Shown here piece after piece: positions 3,689 through 62,378 of a stretch of 64,000 nucleotides of DNA (positions within the stretch are counted from its first letter, which is position 1; each line of letters starts with the position of its first letter). Source of the stretch: Escherichia phage BF15. The translations under genes were made by a program, and so were the position numbers. The notes under the pieces are model-generated. The model was not told where the DNA came from, searched no databases, and saw only the letters and a list, made by a program, of their open reading frames with translations. The stretch lies in sequence record MW822007.1; one strand, 5' to 3'.

Positions 3689-4291
3689 TTATAGATTAAA
3701 TCCTTCAAAATCAAGAGTATAGATAGTGTATGTTGAATACTTTTTATACTCGTATCTATCCGCAATTCTAAATACACTTCCAGCTGGTATCATTACTTCT
3801 TGTTCATCTGAAACTAATTCCATATTACGATAGCGATGGCTATCCGGAAACTTAAAACTTGGACTATATTCTTTACAACGTAGAGCTTTTATAGCATACT
3901 CCTGGAAATTAAATACCATAGGAGCTTTGAATTCAAAAATAACTTGTGTATTGTATTCTAATCCAGAAGCAAAATGTAGAGCTATATTTTTATCATATGA
4001 AGCTGATACTACTTTATCAAATGTAATAATATCAATTCCTTGATTTAACACTTGTTTAGTCTCAACTGGAACACCTCTCCAAAGAGGTTTATCGTTTGGA
4101 ACCAAACGAGATTTGATTATTTCATTTAACCAAGAATGATCGTCTGGCTTATTAGTAATACAATGAATTAAAAGTTCAATTTCGGATAAATTAAATCCTT
4201 CAGAAAGTAATTCTTCACGAATAGAAGCACGCACCGATGCATCCATTGATTTGATTTTAAAATCTTTTAATTGCATTGCTGAATATTTCAT
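3689..4291 (-). CDS. modA: ModA ADP-ribosyltransferase
   Basis: 200 aa, size and position as T4 ModA; paralog of the adjacent ORF. Confidence 0.75.
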   Translation of the reverse strand: MKYSAMQLKDFKIKSMDASVRASIREELLSEGFNLSEIELLIHCITNKPDDHSWLNEIIKSRLVPNDKPLWRGVPVETKQVLNQGIDIITFDKVVSASYDKNIALHFASGLEYNTQVIFEFKAPMVFNFQEYAIKALRCKEYSPSFKFPDSHRYRNMELVSDEQEVMIPAGSVFRIADRYEYKKYSTYTIYTLDFEGFNL

Positions 4292-4911
4292 TCAACTACC
4301 TCAATATCATACACTTTAAATGTTCCAAATGAATCGTGTAATTTTTCTTTTGAAATAGAAGTTATTTTATACTTTCCAATTGGAATCATCCATTCTTGTT
4401 CACGCACAATCATCATTAAGTTATCAGTACGTTCTGAATCTAATCCATCAGTATCTTCATATGTATACTTAAACTCAGTGTTAGGAGAAGAAAGTATAAT
4501 ATCGCTGATATGGTCAGAGTAATTAAAAGCTTTATCAGTTTTTAAGCGAAATATTATTTCAGTGGAATATTCAACATAAGAAAAACCACATGCTGTGTGC
4601 AAACTAGTAGTAAATGAATCTACTCTGTTCGTTGAAAACACTTCTCCAACTTGTAAATCTTTAATGAGTTCTTTTGTCGATTTTGATATACCACGATATA
4701 ACTGATAAGGTGATTCAGTTAAATGCTTTTTAATGATTTTATTCAACTGCCGATGAAGAGCTTCATTCTTTTTGGCTTCCATACATTGCCAAAGAACTGA
4801 CTGTTCAAAGTCAGTAAATTTTTCACAGACCTTTTTATACATATCATATTGAAAATCAACGCTTTCAGCTTTTATAGATAACTGTTCAACATCTGCAAGA
4901 TTAATAATCAT
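4288..4911 (-). CDS. modB: ModB ADP-ribosyltransferase
   Basis: ORF-track start 4923 moved to ATG at 4911 (GGAGG 4-5 nt upstream), giving 207 aa as in T4 ModB. Confidence 0.75.
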   Translation of the reverse strand: MIINLADVEQLSIKAESVDFQYDMYKKVCEKFTDFEQSVLWQCMEAKKNEALHRQLNKIIKKHLTESPYQLYRGISKSTKELIKDLQVGEVFSTNRVDSFTTSLHTACGFSYVEYSTEIIFRLKTDKAFNYSDHISDIILSSPNTEFKYTYEDTDGLDSERTDNLMMIVREQEWMIPIGKYKITSISKEKLHDSFGTFKVYDIEVVE

Positions 4912-7111: not shown

Positions 7112-7357
7112 TTAACCGCCAGTTACTTTCCACAAATCTTCGTTTGCAGCAATCCATTCAGTACGCTGATTTTCTTCATATACAGTAGTATATGCTGCTT
7201 TTTCTGAAGGGAACGTCTGGTAATGAGCACCAGAAATTTTGTGAACGTCAGAATAAAGAGGGAAAGCTACTGAAATTTCCTTTCCTTCAATTTTCTTATT
7301 TCCATCTAATTTCTGCTCAAATGTTTTGATATTAACATAACCGCGAGTACTAGCCAT
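7112..7357 (-). CDS. soc: small outer capsid protein Soc
   Basis: 81 aa, matches T4 Soc as recalled; late promoter upstream, terminator downstream. Confidence 0.95.
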   Translation of the reverse strand: MASTRGYVNIKTFEQKLDGNKKIEGKEISVAFPLYSDVHKISGAHYQTFPSEKAAYTTVYEENQRTEWIAANEDLWKVTGG

Positions 7358-7425: not shown

Positions 7426-7944
7426 TTAATAACCTCGGTCTTGACGAGCGAAATTTTCAGCATTTTTCAGATAATAAAGTTTAAAGATTTCTTCAGCCGT
7501 AAGACCGAGGCCTTGGAACATGTTCAGAACGAAATGAAGAATATCAATCATTTCGAATTTAATTTCCAACTGGTCTTGTGGAGACAAATCAGTAATCAGA
7601 GTTTCACGTCGTTCACCATGTTGAGCTTTCCAAGGCTTCCATACAGCAGATGCATCTTTTTCACCATTGCTCATACCACCAAGAGAAGTCAGAAGTTCGC
7701 GGAATTCATCATCAATATAATCTTTCTGATTACGCAGCCAATCAACAACTTCACCTGCAGTAGCCAAATCATCAGGATGACGGTTATATTCAGGTTTATC
7801 TTTAGCTAAACGAATCTGCAGAGATTTCTGCATGTCAAGCATTACCTGCAGCGGGTCTTTTTCATCACCGAGAATATCCCAATATTCATTTTGAGCTTTA
7901 TCAGCGCCTTCAATCAGTTGACTACATTCGTTAAAGTAAGCCAT
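7426..7944 (-). CDS. 56: dCTPase/dUTPase gp56
   Basis: matches T4 gp56; start moved from 7959 to ATG 7944 (MAYFNEC...) with SD. Confidence 0.9.
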   Translation of the reverse strand: MAYFNECSQLIEGADKAQNEYWDILGDEKDPLQVMLDMQKSLQIRLAKDKPEYNRHPDDLATAGEVVDWLRNQKDYIDDEFRELLTSLGGMSNGEKDASAVWKPWKAQHGERRETLITDLSPQDQLEIKFEMIDILHFVLNMFQGLGLTAEEIFKLYYLKNAENFARQDRGY

Positions 7945-8004
7945 TATTTTTCCTTTCAATTCATCAATAAGTTAAATAATTATATCATTTGAGTATGTAA
8001 GCAA

Positions 8005-9344
<1,340 letters not shown>

Positions 9345-9369
9345 TATATCATCCTCAGCAATTTATTTT

Positions 9370-9399
9370 ATAATACCATAACAAGCTGAGAAAGTAAAC
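9370..9399 (-). promoter_or_regulatory. T4-type early promoter for nuclease-dam operon
   Basis: minus strand GTTTAC-N18-TATTAT, 26 nt upstream of ATG 9344. Confidence 0.55.
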
Positions 9400-9434
9400 A
9401 AATTTATGATAAATATTAATTTAAAGGAGGACAT

Positions 9435-9635
9435 ATGGTACAAAAATTAATGGCACTTGTAGATGCCATAAAAGGTAATAAAAAACGTATAGCTTTTACT
9501 ATTTCTGCTATGATAGGAATTTTACTTTGGAATTTTGTTTTATCGCCAGTTGCTATTGCTCATGGCGTTAGTATTCCAGTAATTACTCTTGATACATTCG
9601 TAGATTTAGCATTTGCTTTAGTTGGGTTAATTTAA
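9435..9635 (+). CDS. small hydrophobic membrane protein
   Basis: 66 aa, two predicted TM helices; ATG preceded by AGGAGG 4 nt upstream; only plus-strand gene candidate in the window. Confidence 0.4.
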   Translation: MVQKLMALVDAIKGNKKRIAFTISAMIGILLWNFVLSPVAIAHGVSIPVITLDTFVDLAFALVGLI

Positions 9636-10660
9636 ATCTTAGCATATTTAGATAGCCGCATTTTAGCCATCAACCCTTGGGCAATATTATTTTTCATATA
9701 TTCCATAATTTGTTCAGGGGTTGCACCTTCCTTTCTAATCATATCATTAACATCTTTTGATTTCCAGGGAGATTTATCCCAAAACATAACCCTTTCTCCT
9801 GCATCAACTAATTTAGTCATTCGTTTAATAGTATCAGGGTGACGAGGTTCATTATCTAAAACCCATACACGTCTATCTTTAAATGGAACAATTTCTAGGT
9901 CTAATTGACCACCTGTAATAGCTATACCATTTTCAATAAAAAGTGAATCTATAGGTCCTTCTAGAACATATACATCACCATCTTTAACTCGTTCAACTCC
10001 ATAGATTTTTGTTGCCTCAGGATAAGCTTTGATGGTGATATATTTTTGAGGAGCATCTTTCTTTAATGCACGTCCTTGAAAAGACTCGGCTTTTCCATTA
10101 GCATTATAAATTGGAATAACAAGACGAGACTCAGGTATTTCCTTTTTGTATGTTCCTGGTGCTATGCTATTAACTAATTTAGGCCATTCGGTTGTAAACC
10201 AAAGATATTTCCATTTATCCTTTGGAATACAGCGAGCTTTTACATATTTTATAATTGGATGGTCTTCCGCCAGTTTATCTAATCTAACACATGACGGAAG
10301 AGATTTAATTATTTTCGTCTCAGGTTGTTTAGGAAGTTCTTTAGGTTTTTCTACTGGACGACTTTTACCTTTTTCTTTTCTTATTTCAAAGATATACTCA
10401 CGATATAAATCGGGTTCAAACTCCTTTAAATATATTCCGATTGGCGCATGATAGTTACAGTTATAACAATGAATATTTCCTTCATTATTATCACCATAAT
10501 ACCATCCACGGGCTTTATTTTGGTCGGTTTTTGAATCTCCACAAACAGGACATCTAAACCGTAATTTAAAAGTTGAACTATTATTTACTTGTGTGAATTT
10601 AGGTAAATGAGCTAATGCACGATACGCAAACTCATTATCAATCCAAGGTATTGATGACAT
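9632..10660 (-). CDS. 61: DNA primase gp61
   Basis: 342 aa; zinc ribbon CPVCGDS...CYNC; matches T4 gp61. Confidence 0.95.
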   Translation of the reverse strand: MSSIPWIDNEFAYRALAHLPKFTQVNNSSTFKLRFRCPVCGDSKTDQNKARGWYYGDNNEGNIHCYNCNYHAPIGIYLKEFEPDLYREYIFEIRKEKGKSRPVEKPKELPKQPETKIIKSLPSCVRLDKLAEDHPIIKYVKARCIPKDKWKYLWFTTEWPKLVNSIAPGTYKKEIPESRLVIPIYNANGKAESFQGRALKKDAPQKYITIKAYPEATKIYGVERVKDGDVYVLEGPIDSLFIENGIAITGGQLDLEIVPFKDRRVWVLDNEPRHPDTIKRMTKLVDAGERVMFWDKSPWKSKDVNDMIRKEGATPEQIMEYMKNNIAQGLMAKMRLSKYAKI

Positions 10661-12024: not shown

Positions 12025-12054
12025 ACTATACCATAGTCTTGTCAGCTTGTAAAC
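12025..12054 (-). promoter_or_regulatory. T4-type early promoter (upstream of dmd)
   Basis: minus strand GTTTAC-N18-TATAGT inside inverted repeat CAAGACT...AGTCTTG. Confidence 0.6.
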
Positions 12055-13481
12055 TAAAATTTTAATTCATTTGCCAAAGCATCTAACTGTGCTCGAGCTG
12101 ATTCGTTTCTTTGATAGCGATTCTGTTCAGCCTGAATCTGTTGTGAACCTGCTACTTCACTCACTTCAGTTGGAGTAGAATCTTGTTCAATTTCTACCCA
12201 TTTTTGATTTCCTTTTTGAACACCCATCAAAAACTTATTCCACTTATTCTTATCACCATATCGTGATTTGATTTGCTTAATGAGTTGTTGTTCAGCAGCT
12301 GCTAGCTCCTCGGTTTCAATGACCGCAAGCATAAAATCGGCTGTTGCTGGAAGACCGGCAGATTCTGCAATATCGCTCATGTTAACATCAGAAGAGTCCC
12401 AAGCTTGTTTACCAACCTGTGCTGCAGTCCAAAGAACAGTTTCGGTTTCAACAGCAAGAGCGCGCAATTCCTCTGCAATAGCTTTAACAGTTGTATAACT
12501 ATTTTCTGAATAAACTCTAATGCGGCAAGATTTACAAATACCTAGATAGTCGACAATAATGATTGTTGGAACAAAATTCTTCTTGAGCTTCAATTCATTC
12601 AAGAGAGACCTGAATGTGTTAGCATCTGCCCCACCAGTAGGATACTGTTTAACGATTAAACGACCAAGAGTAGATTTCTCACGCCATTTTTCCATTTTTC
12701 CTTTATATTCAGCGTAAGAAATATGCCCATCATCAATGTCATCAAGAGAAACATCAAGCATATTAGCATCAATACGCTTAGCACAGACTTCTTCTGCCAT
12801 TTCCATGGAAATGTAAAGAACATTATGTCCGAGCTGCAAATAATCTGCTGCCAATGAACACAATCCTAATGACTTACCAACGTTAACGCCAGCCATTAAA
12901 ACGTTCAGTGTTCCAGTCTCAGCTCCGCCTTTAGTAATTTTGTTTAGAATTCTGAGTTTAAATGGAACCTTACGAGCTTTATTCATATAAGATAGCCAAC
13001 GCGCTTCATAGTCATCCATCCAATCATGACCAACGTAGCTATCAAATGAAATTGATAATGCTTGGCGCATGATGTCAGGAATAGCACCTACATCTGGCAT
13101 TTTCTTATTTCGTTTTTCCGGAGGAAGCTCAGCATTAGTTTGAATTTCGATTATTTTAGACGTAGCATTAAACATCGCCCTTTGCTGAACATATTTTTCT
13201 GTTTCTTTTACTAACCAGCTGTGGTCTTCCGGAGAATCAGCCAGTTTTGAAATAAGTGTTTTTACACCAGAATATTCTGTTTCAGTAAATGAACTATTTT
13301 CTAATGCAACATTTAACGCATTAATAGATGGAACGCTATGGTACTCATTAACATGAGATTTAATTAATTTGAATGTATTTTTAGCTGGACCACTTTCAAA
13401 ATATTCTGAATCCATATATGGCCAAACTTTTGAAAAATAAGCTTGATCAAATATAAGATGAGAAAGAATAATTTCTACCAC
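12054..13481 (-). CDS. 41: replicative DNA helicase gp41
   Basis: 475 aa; DnaB-family motifs; matches T4 gp41. Confidence 0.95.
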   Translation of the reverse strand: MVEIILSHLIFDQAYFSKVWPYMDSEYFESGPAKNTFKLIKSHVNEYHSVPSINALNVALENSSFTETEYSGVKTLISKLADSPEDHSWLVKETEKYVQQRAMFNATSKIIEIQTNAELPPEKRNKKMPDVGAIPDIMRQALSISFDSYVGHDWMDDYEARWLSYMNKARKVPFKLRILNKITKGGAETGTLNVLMAGVNVGKSLGLCSLAADYLQLGHNVLYISMEMAEEVCAKRIDANMLDVSLDDIDDGHISYAEYKGKMEKWREKSTLGRLIVKQYPTGGADANTFRSLLNELKLKKNFVPTIIIVDYLGICKSCRIRVYSENSYTTVKAIAEELRALAVETETVLWTAAQVGKQAWDSSDVNMSDIAESAGLPATADFMLAVIETEELAAAEQQLIKQIKSRYGDKNKWNKFLMGVQKGNQKWVEIEQDSTPTEVSEVAGSQQIQAEQNRYQRNESARAQLDALANELKF

Positions 13482-17455: not shown

Positions 17456-17703
17456 TCCTTCTCTCTGATGATAATTACTTGATTTTGCTGTACAGATTTT
17501 TTAGTTTCACCTGCAATTGACCAAATAAATGTAATAAACCAACCAATGATTGACCAGTTAAACAGTAAAGATGTGAAAAAGATTCCTACTGTCGATTTTG
17601 ACCCACGCATCAAGGCGATGAACCATGGAAGCATGTATATAATAATAGCCAACACGCCTGAAACTAAAACCATAAAAATTGAACCTGCTACTAAAGTTTC
17701 CAT
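17452..17703 (-). CDS. imm: Imm superinfection immunity membrane protein
   Basis: 83 aa, two TM segments; size and position as T4 Imm. Confidence 0.8.
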   Translation of the reverse strand: METLVAGSIFMVLVSGVLAIIIYMLPWFIALMRGSKSTVGIFFTSLLFNWSIIGWFITFIWSIAGETKKSVQQNQVIIIREKE

Positions 17704-17710
17704 GTTTTCC

Positions 17711-18091
17711 TCACTTAGTCAAATTTTTTACACATGAATTATAAGAATTTACTACATACTCCATCGGAGCATTTTTACCGGTACGCCATTGGTAATTATT
17801 AGCCCAATTAGCCCAAATTTCGGCGCAGTAGTTTTCAATTTTTTCTTCACGTGTAATCACATCTGAATTACGATATGCTTGAGCAGATTCATCTGGACGA
17901 ATAGCTTCGTCAAAATTCGCCTGCATTTGTTCTACTGTCTGTTTTGGAGCTTCTTTATAACACTTAACATTAGGATTATAAAATTTGCTTGAACAGTTTA
18001 CAATTTTTCCTACATCAGATTGATTTACTACCGGTCCTTGAGCTACACAACCAGTAAGACCCAATGCAATAACCAAAATAGCGATTTTCAT
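17711..18091 (-). CDS. predicted lipoprotein
   Basis: ORF-track ORF trimmed to ATG 18091 (GGAG SD); lipobox LTGC; upstream part of track ORF is promoter read-through. Confidence 0.55.
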   Translation of the reverse strand: MKIAILVIALGLTGCVAQGPVVNQSDVGKIVNCSSKFYNPNVKCYKEAPKQTVEQMQANFDEAIRPDESAQAYRNSDVITREEKIENYCAEIWANWANNYQWRTGKNAPMEYVVNSYNSCVKNLTK

Positions 18092-61671: not shown

Positions 61672-62337
61672 TTAAAATTTCATTTTTCGACCTTTAAACC
61701 ATCCTTCTGGAATTGGATCAGTTTTCTTAATACGTTTAGAAACTTTTTCATCTAATGAATGAATCCACATCATACCAAATTGGGAATTCTTTTCACCTTG
61801 TTGGTGTTTATTTCTGGCGTGAGATTCTTTCATTTTATTAATAGTTTCAGGAGTATGAGTCTTACCCAAGAAAGATTTAGTATTTAAAAATTTCTCTCTA
61901 TACTTAGGATTATCCCAAAGCTGTTTAAACCTTTCTGAACCCATTTTACGATATTTTTCTTTAAGGTCTGGGTCGTTCTCAAATCTGGTTTTAAAAGCGG
62001 CAGCTCCTTTTAAGGAAGCTTCTTTCTTTTTATCCAAATATTCTTTAGTGTTTAAATGGTCCCAACCACCTTCACCACCTAATTTCAAATTATAAACATC
62101 AGGGCGCTTTAAAAACTCTTCAGTCACAATATTCTTTTCTGACTCAAACATAGAGGTTTTATCGTCAAAGAACTCTAATATTTCTTTAGAAAAATTTTCT
62201 ATACCATACTTATCTTGGGCTCTTTTTAATAATTTACCAGAACCCATATATCCATCATCTAAATTTTCGGTAGAATGAGCGCCTATATAGATTTTATTAT
62301 TAATTTTATTTGTTATTTTATAAATGTAATGGAACAT
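61672..62337 (-). CDS. segB: GIY-YIG homing endonuclease SegB
   Basis: 221 aa; KIYIGAHS...YMGSG; inside tRNA cluster as T4 segB. Confidence 0.75.
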   Translation of the reverse strand: MFHYIYKITNKINNKIYIGAHSTENLDDGYMGSGKLLKRAQDKYGIENFSKEILEFFDDKTSMFESEKNIVTEEFLKRPDVYNLKLGGEGGWDHLNTKEYLDKKKEASLKGAAAFKTRFENDPDLKEKYRKMGSERFKQLWDNPKYREKFLNTKSFLGKTHTPETINKMKESHARNKHQQGEKNSQFGMMWIHSLDEKVSKRIKKTDPIPEGWFKGRKMKF

Positions 62338-62378
62338 AAATATCTCCTATTTCTAAGAGTATTTATGTTCTCAAAATA

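Follow-up and report, generated by a model that had tools for sequence, protein, structure and literature searches.

The late genes of T4-type phages are transcribed from promoters in which a TATAAATA element lies ~6 nt upstream of the transcript start. T4 late genes with such a minimal element (soc, e and 49) share one layout, namely an ATAAATA core, 13-30 nt, a Shine-Dalgarno (SD) sequence and ATG, and the small gene described here has the same layout. It differs from genes of this type in having G as the first base of the element and in facing the opposite way to all its neighbours. The closest described relatives of its product are the proteins of PHROG 2024 (the RB32 ORF030w/VR7 ORF033w type), which have the same size, position and orientation by gene 61; the ORF analysed here is an ordinary member, and no difference from that family was found.

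The window, the whole stretch of DNA analysed in this work, comprises 64,000 nt of one strand from Escherichia phage BF15 (MW822007.1), a T4-like phage of the genus Tequatrovirus. The first-pass annotation described coding in it as nearly exclusive to the minus strand, and this held: minus-strand ORFs of 60 aa or more take up 92% of its length, with a single SD-led exception on the plus strand. That ORF is the only one on the plus strand of at least 25 aa that combines an SD-like motif with <35% overlap by minus-strand ORFs, and it lies at 9345-9631, one of only ten places where the cover of minus-strand ORFs is interrupted for 150 nt or more. The 1.1-kb stretch around it has matches in 503 phage records and shares 99% identity with Escherichia phage vB_EcoM_IME537. 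The relevant features are as follows.

7112-7357, minus strand: soc
7426-7959, minus strand: gene 56, dCTPase
8005-8784, minus strand: dam
8784-9344, minus strand: 186-aa nuclease-like ORF, adjoining dam
9408-9415, plus strand: late-promoter-like element GATAAATA, with the core ATAAATA at 9409-9415; 7 of 8 bases match the T4 late promoter TATAAATA
9425-9430, plus strand: Shine-Dalgarno sequence AGGAGG, followed by the spacer ACAT (4 nt) and the ATG at 9435
9435-9635, plus strand: 66-aa ORF, with ATG start at 9435 and TAA stop at 9633-9635
9440-9469, minus strand: terminator-like hairpin ATGGCA-N8-TGCCAT followed by TAATTTTTGT, within codons 2-12 of the 66-aa ORF
9632-9635: TTAA tail-to-tail overlap of the 66-aa ORF and gene 61, 4 nt shared
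9632-10660, minus strand: gene 61, primase, whose stop is the complement of 9632-9634
12054-13481, minus strand: gene 41, helicase

Several details that had been noted from the letters alone were confirmed here: the AGGAGG stands 4 nt before the ATG of the 66-aa ORF (9425-9430, spacer ACAT), the promoter-like GATAAATA, placed at about 20 nt upstream, ends 19 nt before the ATG, and the stop codons of the ORF and gene 61 do overlap tail to tail, sharing the 4 nt at 9632-9635. The same TTAA overlap is present in T4, in the Mosigvirus p000v and in PEi20, and is missing in VR7, Bp7 and Metamorpho, where another gene or a second copy intervenes.

On the strength of its conservation, the lone plus-strand ORF at 9435-9635 is a genuine gene. 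The 66-aa protein matched 703 phage records by tblastn, at least 689 of which have it complete, with identities of 80-100% in Tequatrovirus and ~50% in Mosigvirus and Gaprivervirus; in the latter two genera the copies lie under or beside a 'DNA primase' in almost all of the records listed. Searching with the VR7 homologue, together with inspection of the loci, extended the family to Dhakavirus (Bp7), Kanagawavirus (PEi20) and Jiaodavirus (Metamorpho), where the homologue is again the one ORF on the opposite strand between the genes of the gene 56 side and those of the gene 61 side. The gene first proposed from one window is thus found across six genera of the Tevenvirinae. The slot between gene 56 and gene 61 is occupied in the window, T4, IME537, VR7, p000v, Bp7, PEi20 and Metamorpho, and by this comparison the gene has long resided where the gene 56 early unit borders on that of gene 61. 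Protein identity across the six genera is only 18-50%, while frame, length, SD and promoter core are all kept. Despite saturation of synonymous sites between genera, the frame and a length of 65-66 aa are retained, and intact members measure 61-69 aa. Pairwise dN/dS values are mostly 0.10-0.26, rising to 0.39-0.59 in two Gaprivervirus pairs, and variable sites within genera are distributed over codon positions 1, 2 and 3 as 25, 6 and 36 (p = 5e-4).

The family has already been catalogued, with no assigned function, and the 66-aa gene is an ordinary member of it. The protein matches phrog_2024 with E = 5.5e-30, residues 2-66 aligning with profile positions 1-65 of 65, and all 30 of 30 diverse homologues match the same PHROG. 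A wide-profile search returned 117 clusters at 90% identity, all of 56-73 aa and from T4-like phages; those located on long contigs belong to T4-like genomes of 160-175 kb. With a narrow profile, an exhaustive HMM search of 1.84 billion representatives gave only 6 clusters. A protein 100% identical to that of the window is listed as 'hypothetical' in phages OES_C-1/2/3. In VR7, an unannotated second paralogue of the Bp7 type (MGTLFYQIWKLTSKKDKK…) lies in tandem directly downstream of ORF033w (positions 2701-2970 of locus L003, plus strand). This copy has its own SD-like AGGTGG and extends ~70 nt antisense into gene 61, and its counterpart has decayed in TH40 and DCP80.

The gene is also present in T4. 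The T4 reference (NC_000866) has an unannotated interval of 309 bp at 17626-17934 (4127-4435 in locus L001), between the end of dam at 17625 and the start of gene 61 at 17935, and most of this interval is taken up by the intact 66-aa ORF at 17738-17938 on the plus strand, complete with SD and GATAAATA. The 186-aa gene is reduced there to its last ~20 codons (4140-4202 in locus L001, minus strand). The deletion stopped 1-2 nt short of GATAAATA, where homology between T4 and the window begins again, and thereby left the promoter-like element in place. A sigma-70-like promoter at 9325-9352 (9 of 12 matches) was considered as well and dropped, since this DNA is deleted in T4. Annotation of the ORF is missing also in PEi20, HY01, SH7 and ATK47. 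Because the T4 reference lacks the ORF, omics studies and genetic screens that are based on it cannot report on the gene, and a T4 RNA-seq/proteomics study that we examined is an example of such reliance. No discussion of the 66-aa ORF was found in the literature on T4 translation and small proteins, late and antisense start sites, unannotated ORFs, CRISPRi-ART and HIDEN-SEQ.

The expression signals were compared by stacking the upstream regions of 12 loci from 6 genera on their start codons. In all 12 loci, and thus in all 6 genera, an xATAAATA element is followed by AGGAGG, AGGAG or GGAGG and then by ATG, with 13-22 nt between the end of the element and the ATG. Outside these signals, the upstream sequences of several of the loci show no relationship to each other, and Tequatrovirus alone contributes three different upstream neighbours. 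The base x varies by lineage, being G or A in Tequatrovirus, A in Mosigvirus, C in Gaprivervirus, Kanagawavirus and Jiaodavirus, and T in Bp7, which for that reason has a perfect TATAAATA; the first base therefore differs from the consensus T in five of the six genera. The T at -13 is poorly conserved in the late promoters of T4-like phages (Nolan et al. 2006, PMC1524935). Within the window, ATAAATA is 3.3-fold depleted, with 13 copies on both strands against 43 +/- 6.6 expected from shuffled sequences, and 8 of the 13 sit 8-30 nt 5' of a start codon. A clear SD follows five of the copies, those before the 66-aa ORF, soc (start codon at 7357), the lysozyme gene e (57421, two tandem motifs) and the GIY-YIG segB-like gene (62337), and a weaker SD-like sequence follows the copy before gene 49 (36530). 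From the conserved core, the depletion of the motif and the layout seen in soc, e and 49, we infer, with good support, that transcription of the 66-aa gene is probably late and gp55-dependent.

Two CATAAATA motifs face each other, at 62336-62342 on the plus strand and 62366-62360 on the minus strand. The minus-strand copy precedes the segB-like GIY-YIG ORF; the plus-strand copy has no ORF downstream and aims at a tRNA-looking sequence.

The stop codon of the ORF is followed at once, in Bp7 and Metamorpho, by a strong intrinsic terminator on the plus strand, a hairpin with a T-run, and in these phages promoter, SD, ORF and terminator thus make up a self-contained cassette. In the window, no plus-strand intrinsic terminator was found for ~4 kb past the ORF.

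That the ORF encodes a hydrophobic membrane protein and converges on the primase gene, as had been proposed, was borne out. The number of its membrane helices was not. Two had been predicted, and TM prediction does not bear out the second. Only one insertion-competent 19-mer is seen in the hydropathy analysis (residues 19-37, summed Hessa-scale energy ~+0.4 kcal/mol), and the corresponding robust TM helix, at ~19-41, is preceded by five Lys/Arg residues and followed by none. For the last 19 residues the insertion energy is +6 kcal/mol in the window protein and +4 to +14 kcal/mol across the family. Each family member likewise has one low-energy TM segment, with 3-6 Lys/Arg residues before it and 0-1 after it. 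Because there is a single low-energy segment with basic residues on one side of it only, the protein likely crosses the inner membrane once, N-in/C-out, with a periplasmic tail of ~25 residues, a topology that is drawn from hydropathy and the positive-inside rule. The second hydrophobic segment (…LAFALVGLI), which holds conserved acidic and proline residues, is probably a short periplasmic or interfacial helix rather than a TM one. A two-TM hairpin is less likely, and a helical hairpin within an oligomer is conceivable for the Tequatrovirus form (mean KD hydropathy of 1.9 over the last 19 residues). AF2 models agree with this arrangement and contain helices at 2-12, 16-42 and 52-63, with pLDDT of 75 from 7 sequences and 80 from 30 sequences.

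Conservation along the protein is uneven. In an alignment of 30 sequences W32, N33 and P38 are invariant, A40, G44, P48 and G64 are conserved in at least 90%, and position 53 is always Asp or Glu, giving the pattern W32-N33-x4-P38-x-A40-x3-G44-x3-P48-x4-D53. Conservation peaks at positions 32-53, where the outer half of the TM helix leads into the juxtamembrane loop; the parts that vary most are the cytoplasmic N-terminus and the inner half of the helix. The position of this peak suggests that the functional surface faces the periplasmic side.

Taken as a whole, the 66-aa ORF is probably an autonomous late transcription unit for a small protein that spans the inner membrane once. RNA polymerase programmed by gp55 would start, late in infection, a few bases downstream of the (G)ATAAATA element, and as the resulting short leader carries a consensus SD, efficient translation of the 66 codons would be expected. 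The protein would insert with its basic N-terminus (+5) in the cytoplasm, one TM helix (~19-41) and a periplasmic tail of ~25 residues, and its constrained residues (W32, N33, P38, A40, G44, P48 and the acidic residue 53) could serve a partner or an activity at the periplasmic face of the inner membrane. Our best guess for its role is late envelope modulation, be it in lysis timing, lysis inhibition, or late exclusion or protection.

Searches for a more specific function gave little. The 66-aa protein had no matches in Pfam, NCBIfam or PADLOC, and a Pfam scan of 30 family members gave just scattered single matches with E >= 0.015. A sequence search of the PDB with the family profile returned only noise (YejA, with E = 0.08), while Foldseek with the AF2 models retrieved only family members from BFVD and nothing from the PDB. 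Members of the clusters are named 'hypothetical protein', except for one labelled 'DNA packaging ATPase' and one labelled 'Holin'. Among well-studied phage proteins, Imm, Sp, the RI antiholin and holin T are likewise small, and the 66-aa protein shares with them a predicted location at the inner membrane or in the periplasm; holin T is also single-pass and N-in/C-out, as is predicted for the 66-aa protein. On the other hand, no sequence or fold similarity to any of the four was detected. Other differences are the early expression of Imm and Sp and the large domain of T in the periplasm. As a category, lysis or envelope function may still be the most plausible for the protein, although our confidence in it is low.

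Within this category, one possibility is a lysis protein of the holin, pinholin or antiholin type, which would form membrane lesions or regulate them. The 66-aa protein is small, embedded in the membrane, apparently late and made from a strong SD-led message, and it has at least the one TM helix (~19-41) that such a protein needs. One UniRef/BFVD entry, from phage OE5505, is the one labelled 'Holin', one of the 30 family members matches a holin PHROG (E = 8e-4), and, were the C-terminal helix inserted, a pore could be lined by the conserved acidic residues. Nevertheless, we regard this possibility as unlikely. Only one robust TM helix is predicted. Holins have a highly charged, usually basic, cytoplasmic C-terminal tail, whereas the C-terminus of the 66-aa protein is hydrophobic and contains no Lys or Arg after the TM helix. 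The gene does not belong to a lysis cassette, having primase, dam, dCTPase and soc as neighbours and lying ~48 kb away from lysozyme e, and no Pfam holin family matched. The 'Holin' label was assigned automatically and stands alone among hundreds of entries named 'hypothetical protein'. Moreover, T4-like phages already encode a full lysis system, which includes holin T, the antiholins RI and RIII, endolysin E and spanins. The sequence MVQKLM, considered as a 'dual start' holin signature, was dropped, as it is not conserved outside Tequatrovirus.

A different kind of explanation would place the function in the RNA: the late plus-strand transcript would extend antisense into gene 61 and silence the primase mRNA late in infection, or insulate the two early units, and the ORF would be just a translated leader. 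The convergent, overlapping arrangement with gene 61 and the ~4 kb of the window without a plus-strand intrinsic terminator agree with it, and so does the hairpin at 9440-9469. Two terminator-like sites were found, against 0.3 expected in shuffled sequences; this one is annotated as a terminator in Yersinia phage fPS-90, and the gene 61 transcript probably ends there. With the predicted terminator of gene 61 inside the ORF, the 3' UTR of gene 61 and the small mRNA would be complementary over ~195 nt. In Tequatrovirus the stem is kept while the loop changes (D10N), which indicates a dual constraint, coding and structural. However, the stem is absent in Mosigvirus and Gaprivervirus, so that any antisense interplay would be genus-specific. 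For the same reason, the minus-strand terminator was ruled out as the cause of the conservation of the ORF. Selection acts at the protein level, and in Bp7 and Metamorpho the unit ends in strong terminators and another gene precedes gene 61. A purely RNA-based function is thus distinctly doubtful. A scan of positions 9000-10000 against Rfam matched no family. The mutual antisense of ~195 nt in Tequatrovirus is probably a by-product of tight packing rather than a conserved function. An antisense side effect in this genus, alongside the function of the protein, is possible, and in the window phage the transcript, with no plus-strand terminator for ~4 kb, may have such an additional role. A comparison can also be made with type I toxins (Hok/Ldr/TisB), which are likewise hydrophobic peptides of <70 aa, and here too the mRNA would pair with another RNA, in Tequatrovirus the gene 61 3' UTR. 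Unlike those systems, the 66-aa gene has no dedicated antisense sRNA, and the overlap with the gene 61 3' UTR is not conserved in other genera; a Pfam match to Ldr was seen in one of 30 family members, with E = 0.1.

It is very improbable that the ORF is no gene, but a chance reading frame in the 3' UTR and terminator region of gene 61 that is conserved by constraint on the other strand. The ORF is indeed short, AT-rich and absent from the T4 reference annotation, and it overlaps the minus-strand terminator-like hairpin. Yet this hairpin spans just codons 2-12 and is not conserved beyond Tequatrovirus, and no Rfam family matched the region. Variation in the ORF is periodic by codon, with pairwise dN/dS mostly well under 1, and frame, length, SD and promoter core persist in six genera whose proteins are only 18-50% identical.

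Extremely unlikely, finally, is the functional link suggested in the first-pass annotation, by which the small protein would provide immunity to, or be a membrane partner of, the product of the adjacent 186-aa PD-(D/E)XK nuclease-like gene. The two are neighbours in the window, and the 186-aa protein gives weak type II restriction-enzyme matches. The distribution of the nuclease gene, however, contradicts the link: full-length copies were found in ~154 records, whereas the small ORF is complete in at least 689. T4 retains ~20 codons of the nuclease gene but has ORF, SD and GATAAATA intact, and in five further genera (Mosig-, Gapriver-, Dhaka-, Kanagawa- and Jiaodavirus) the ORF occupies the slot and the nuclease gene is absent. 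The nuclease gene is at least 99% identical in most of its carriers, whereas the small ORF has diverged along with the phages. The two genes would not be co-transcribed, as they lie on opposite strands and diverge, and the near identity of most 186-aa copies is what would be expected of a recent mobile insertion. Mosigvirus and Gaprivervirus carry the small ORF also without dam, and judged by these distributions the 66-aa gene is independent of both dam and the 186-aa nuclease-like gene.

The 186-aa ORF itself belongs to phrog_8706 and has a D-x13-E-x-K motif and weak matches to PADLOC REase_II (9e-5) and Pfam DpnII (0.0045); no relative was found in a PDB sequence search. The ~154 phage records with this gene include T2. 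The pairing of a GATC methylase with a neighbouring DpnII-like nuclease in a T-even phage merits an analysis of its own.

An autonomous late unit encoding a small inner-membrane protein is, therefore, the reading that we prefer for the 66-aa gene. Apart from its omission from the T4 annotation, it is an ordinary conserved hypothetical gene. Still, T4 is among the best-annotated viruses, and a gap in its reference is mostly filled by an intact and conserved ORF. It would be cheap to annotate this ORF, and its conserved position and promoter make the gene easy to test. A bolder proposal is that T4 and its relatives have an overlooked late membrane protein which acts in lysis or lysis inhibition, or in late envelope protection or exclusion, and which in Tequatrovirus is accompanied by an antisense RNA against the primase mRNA; in this combined form it is tentative and rather unlikely to hold in full. 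More generally, a late membrane protein with a conserved face on its periplasmic side would be a reasonable candidate for an unassigned envelope step in the T-even phages.
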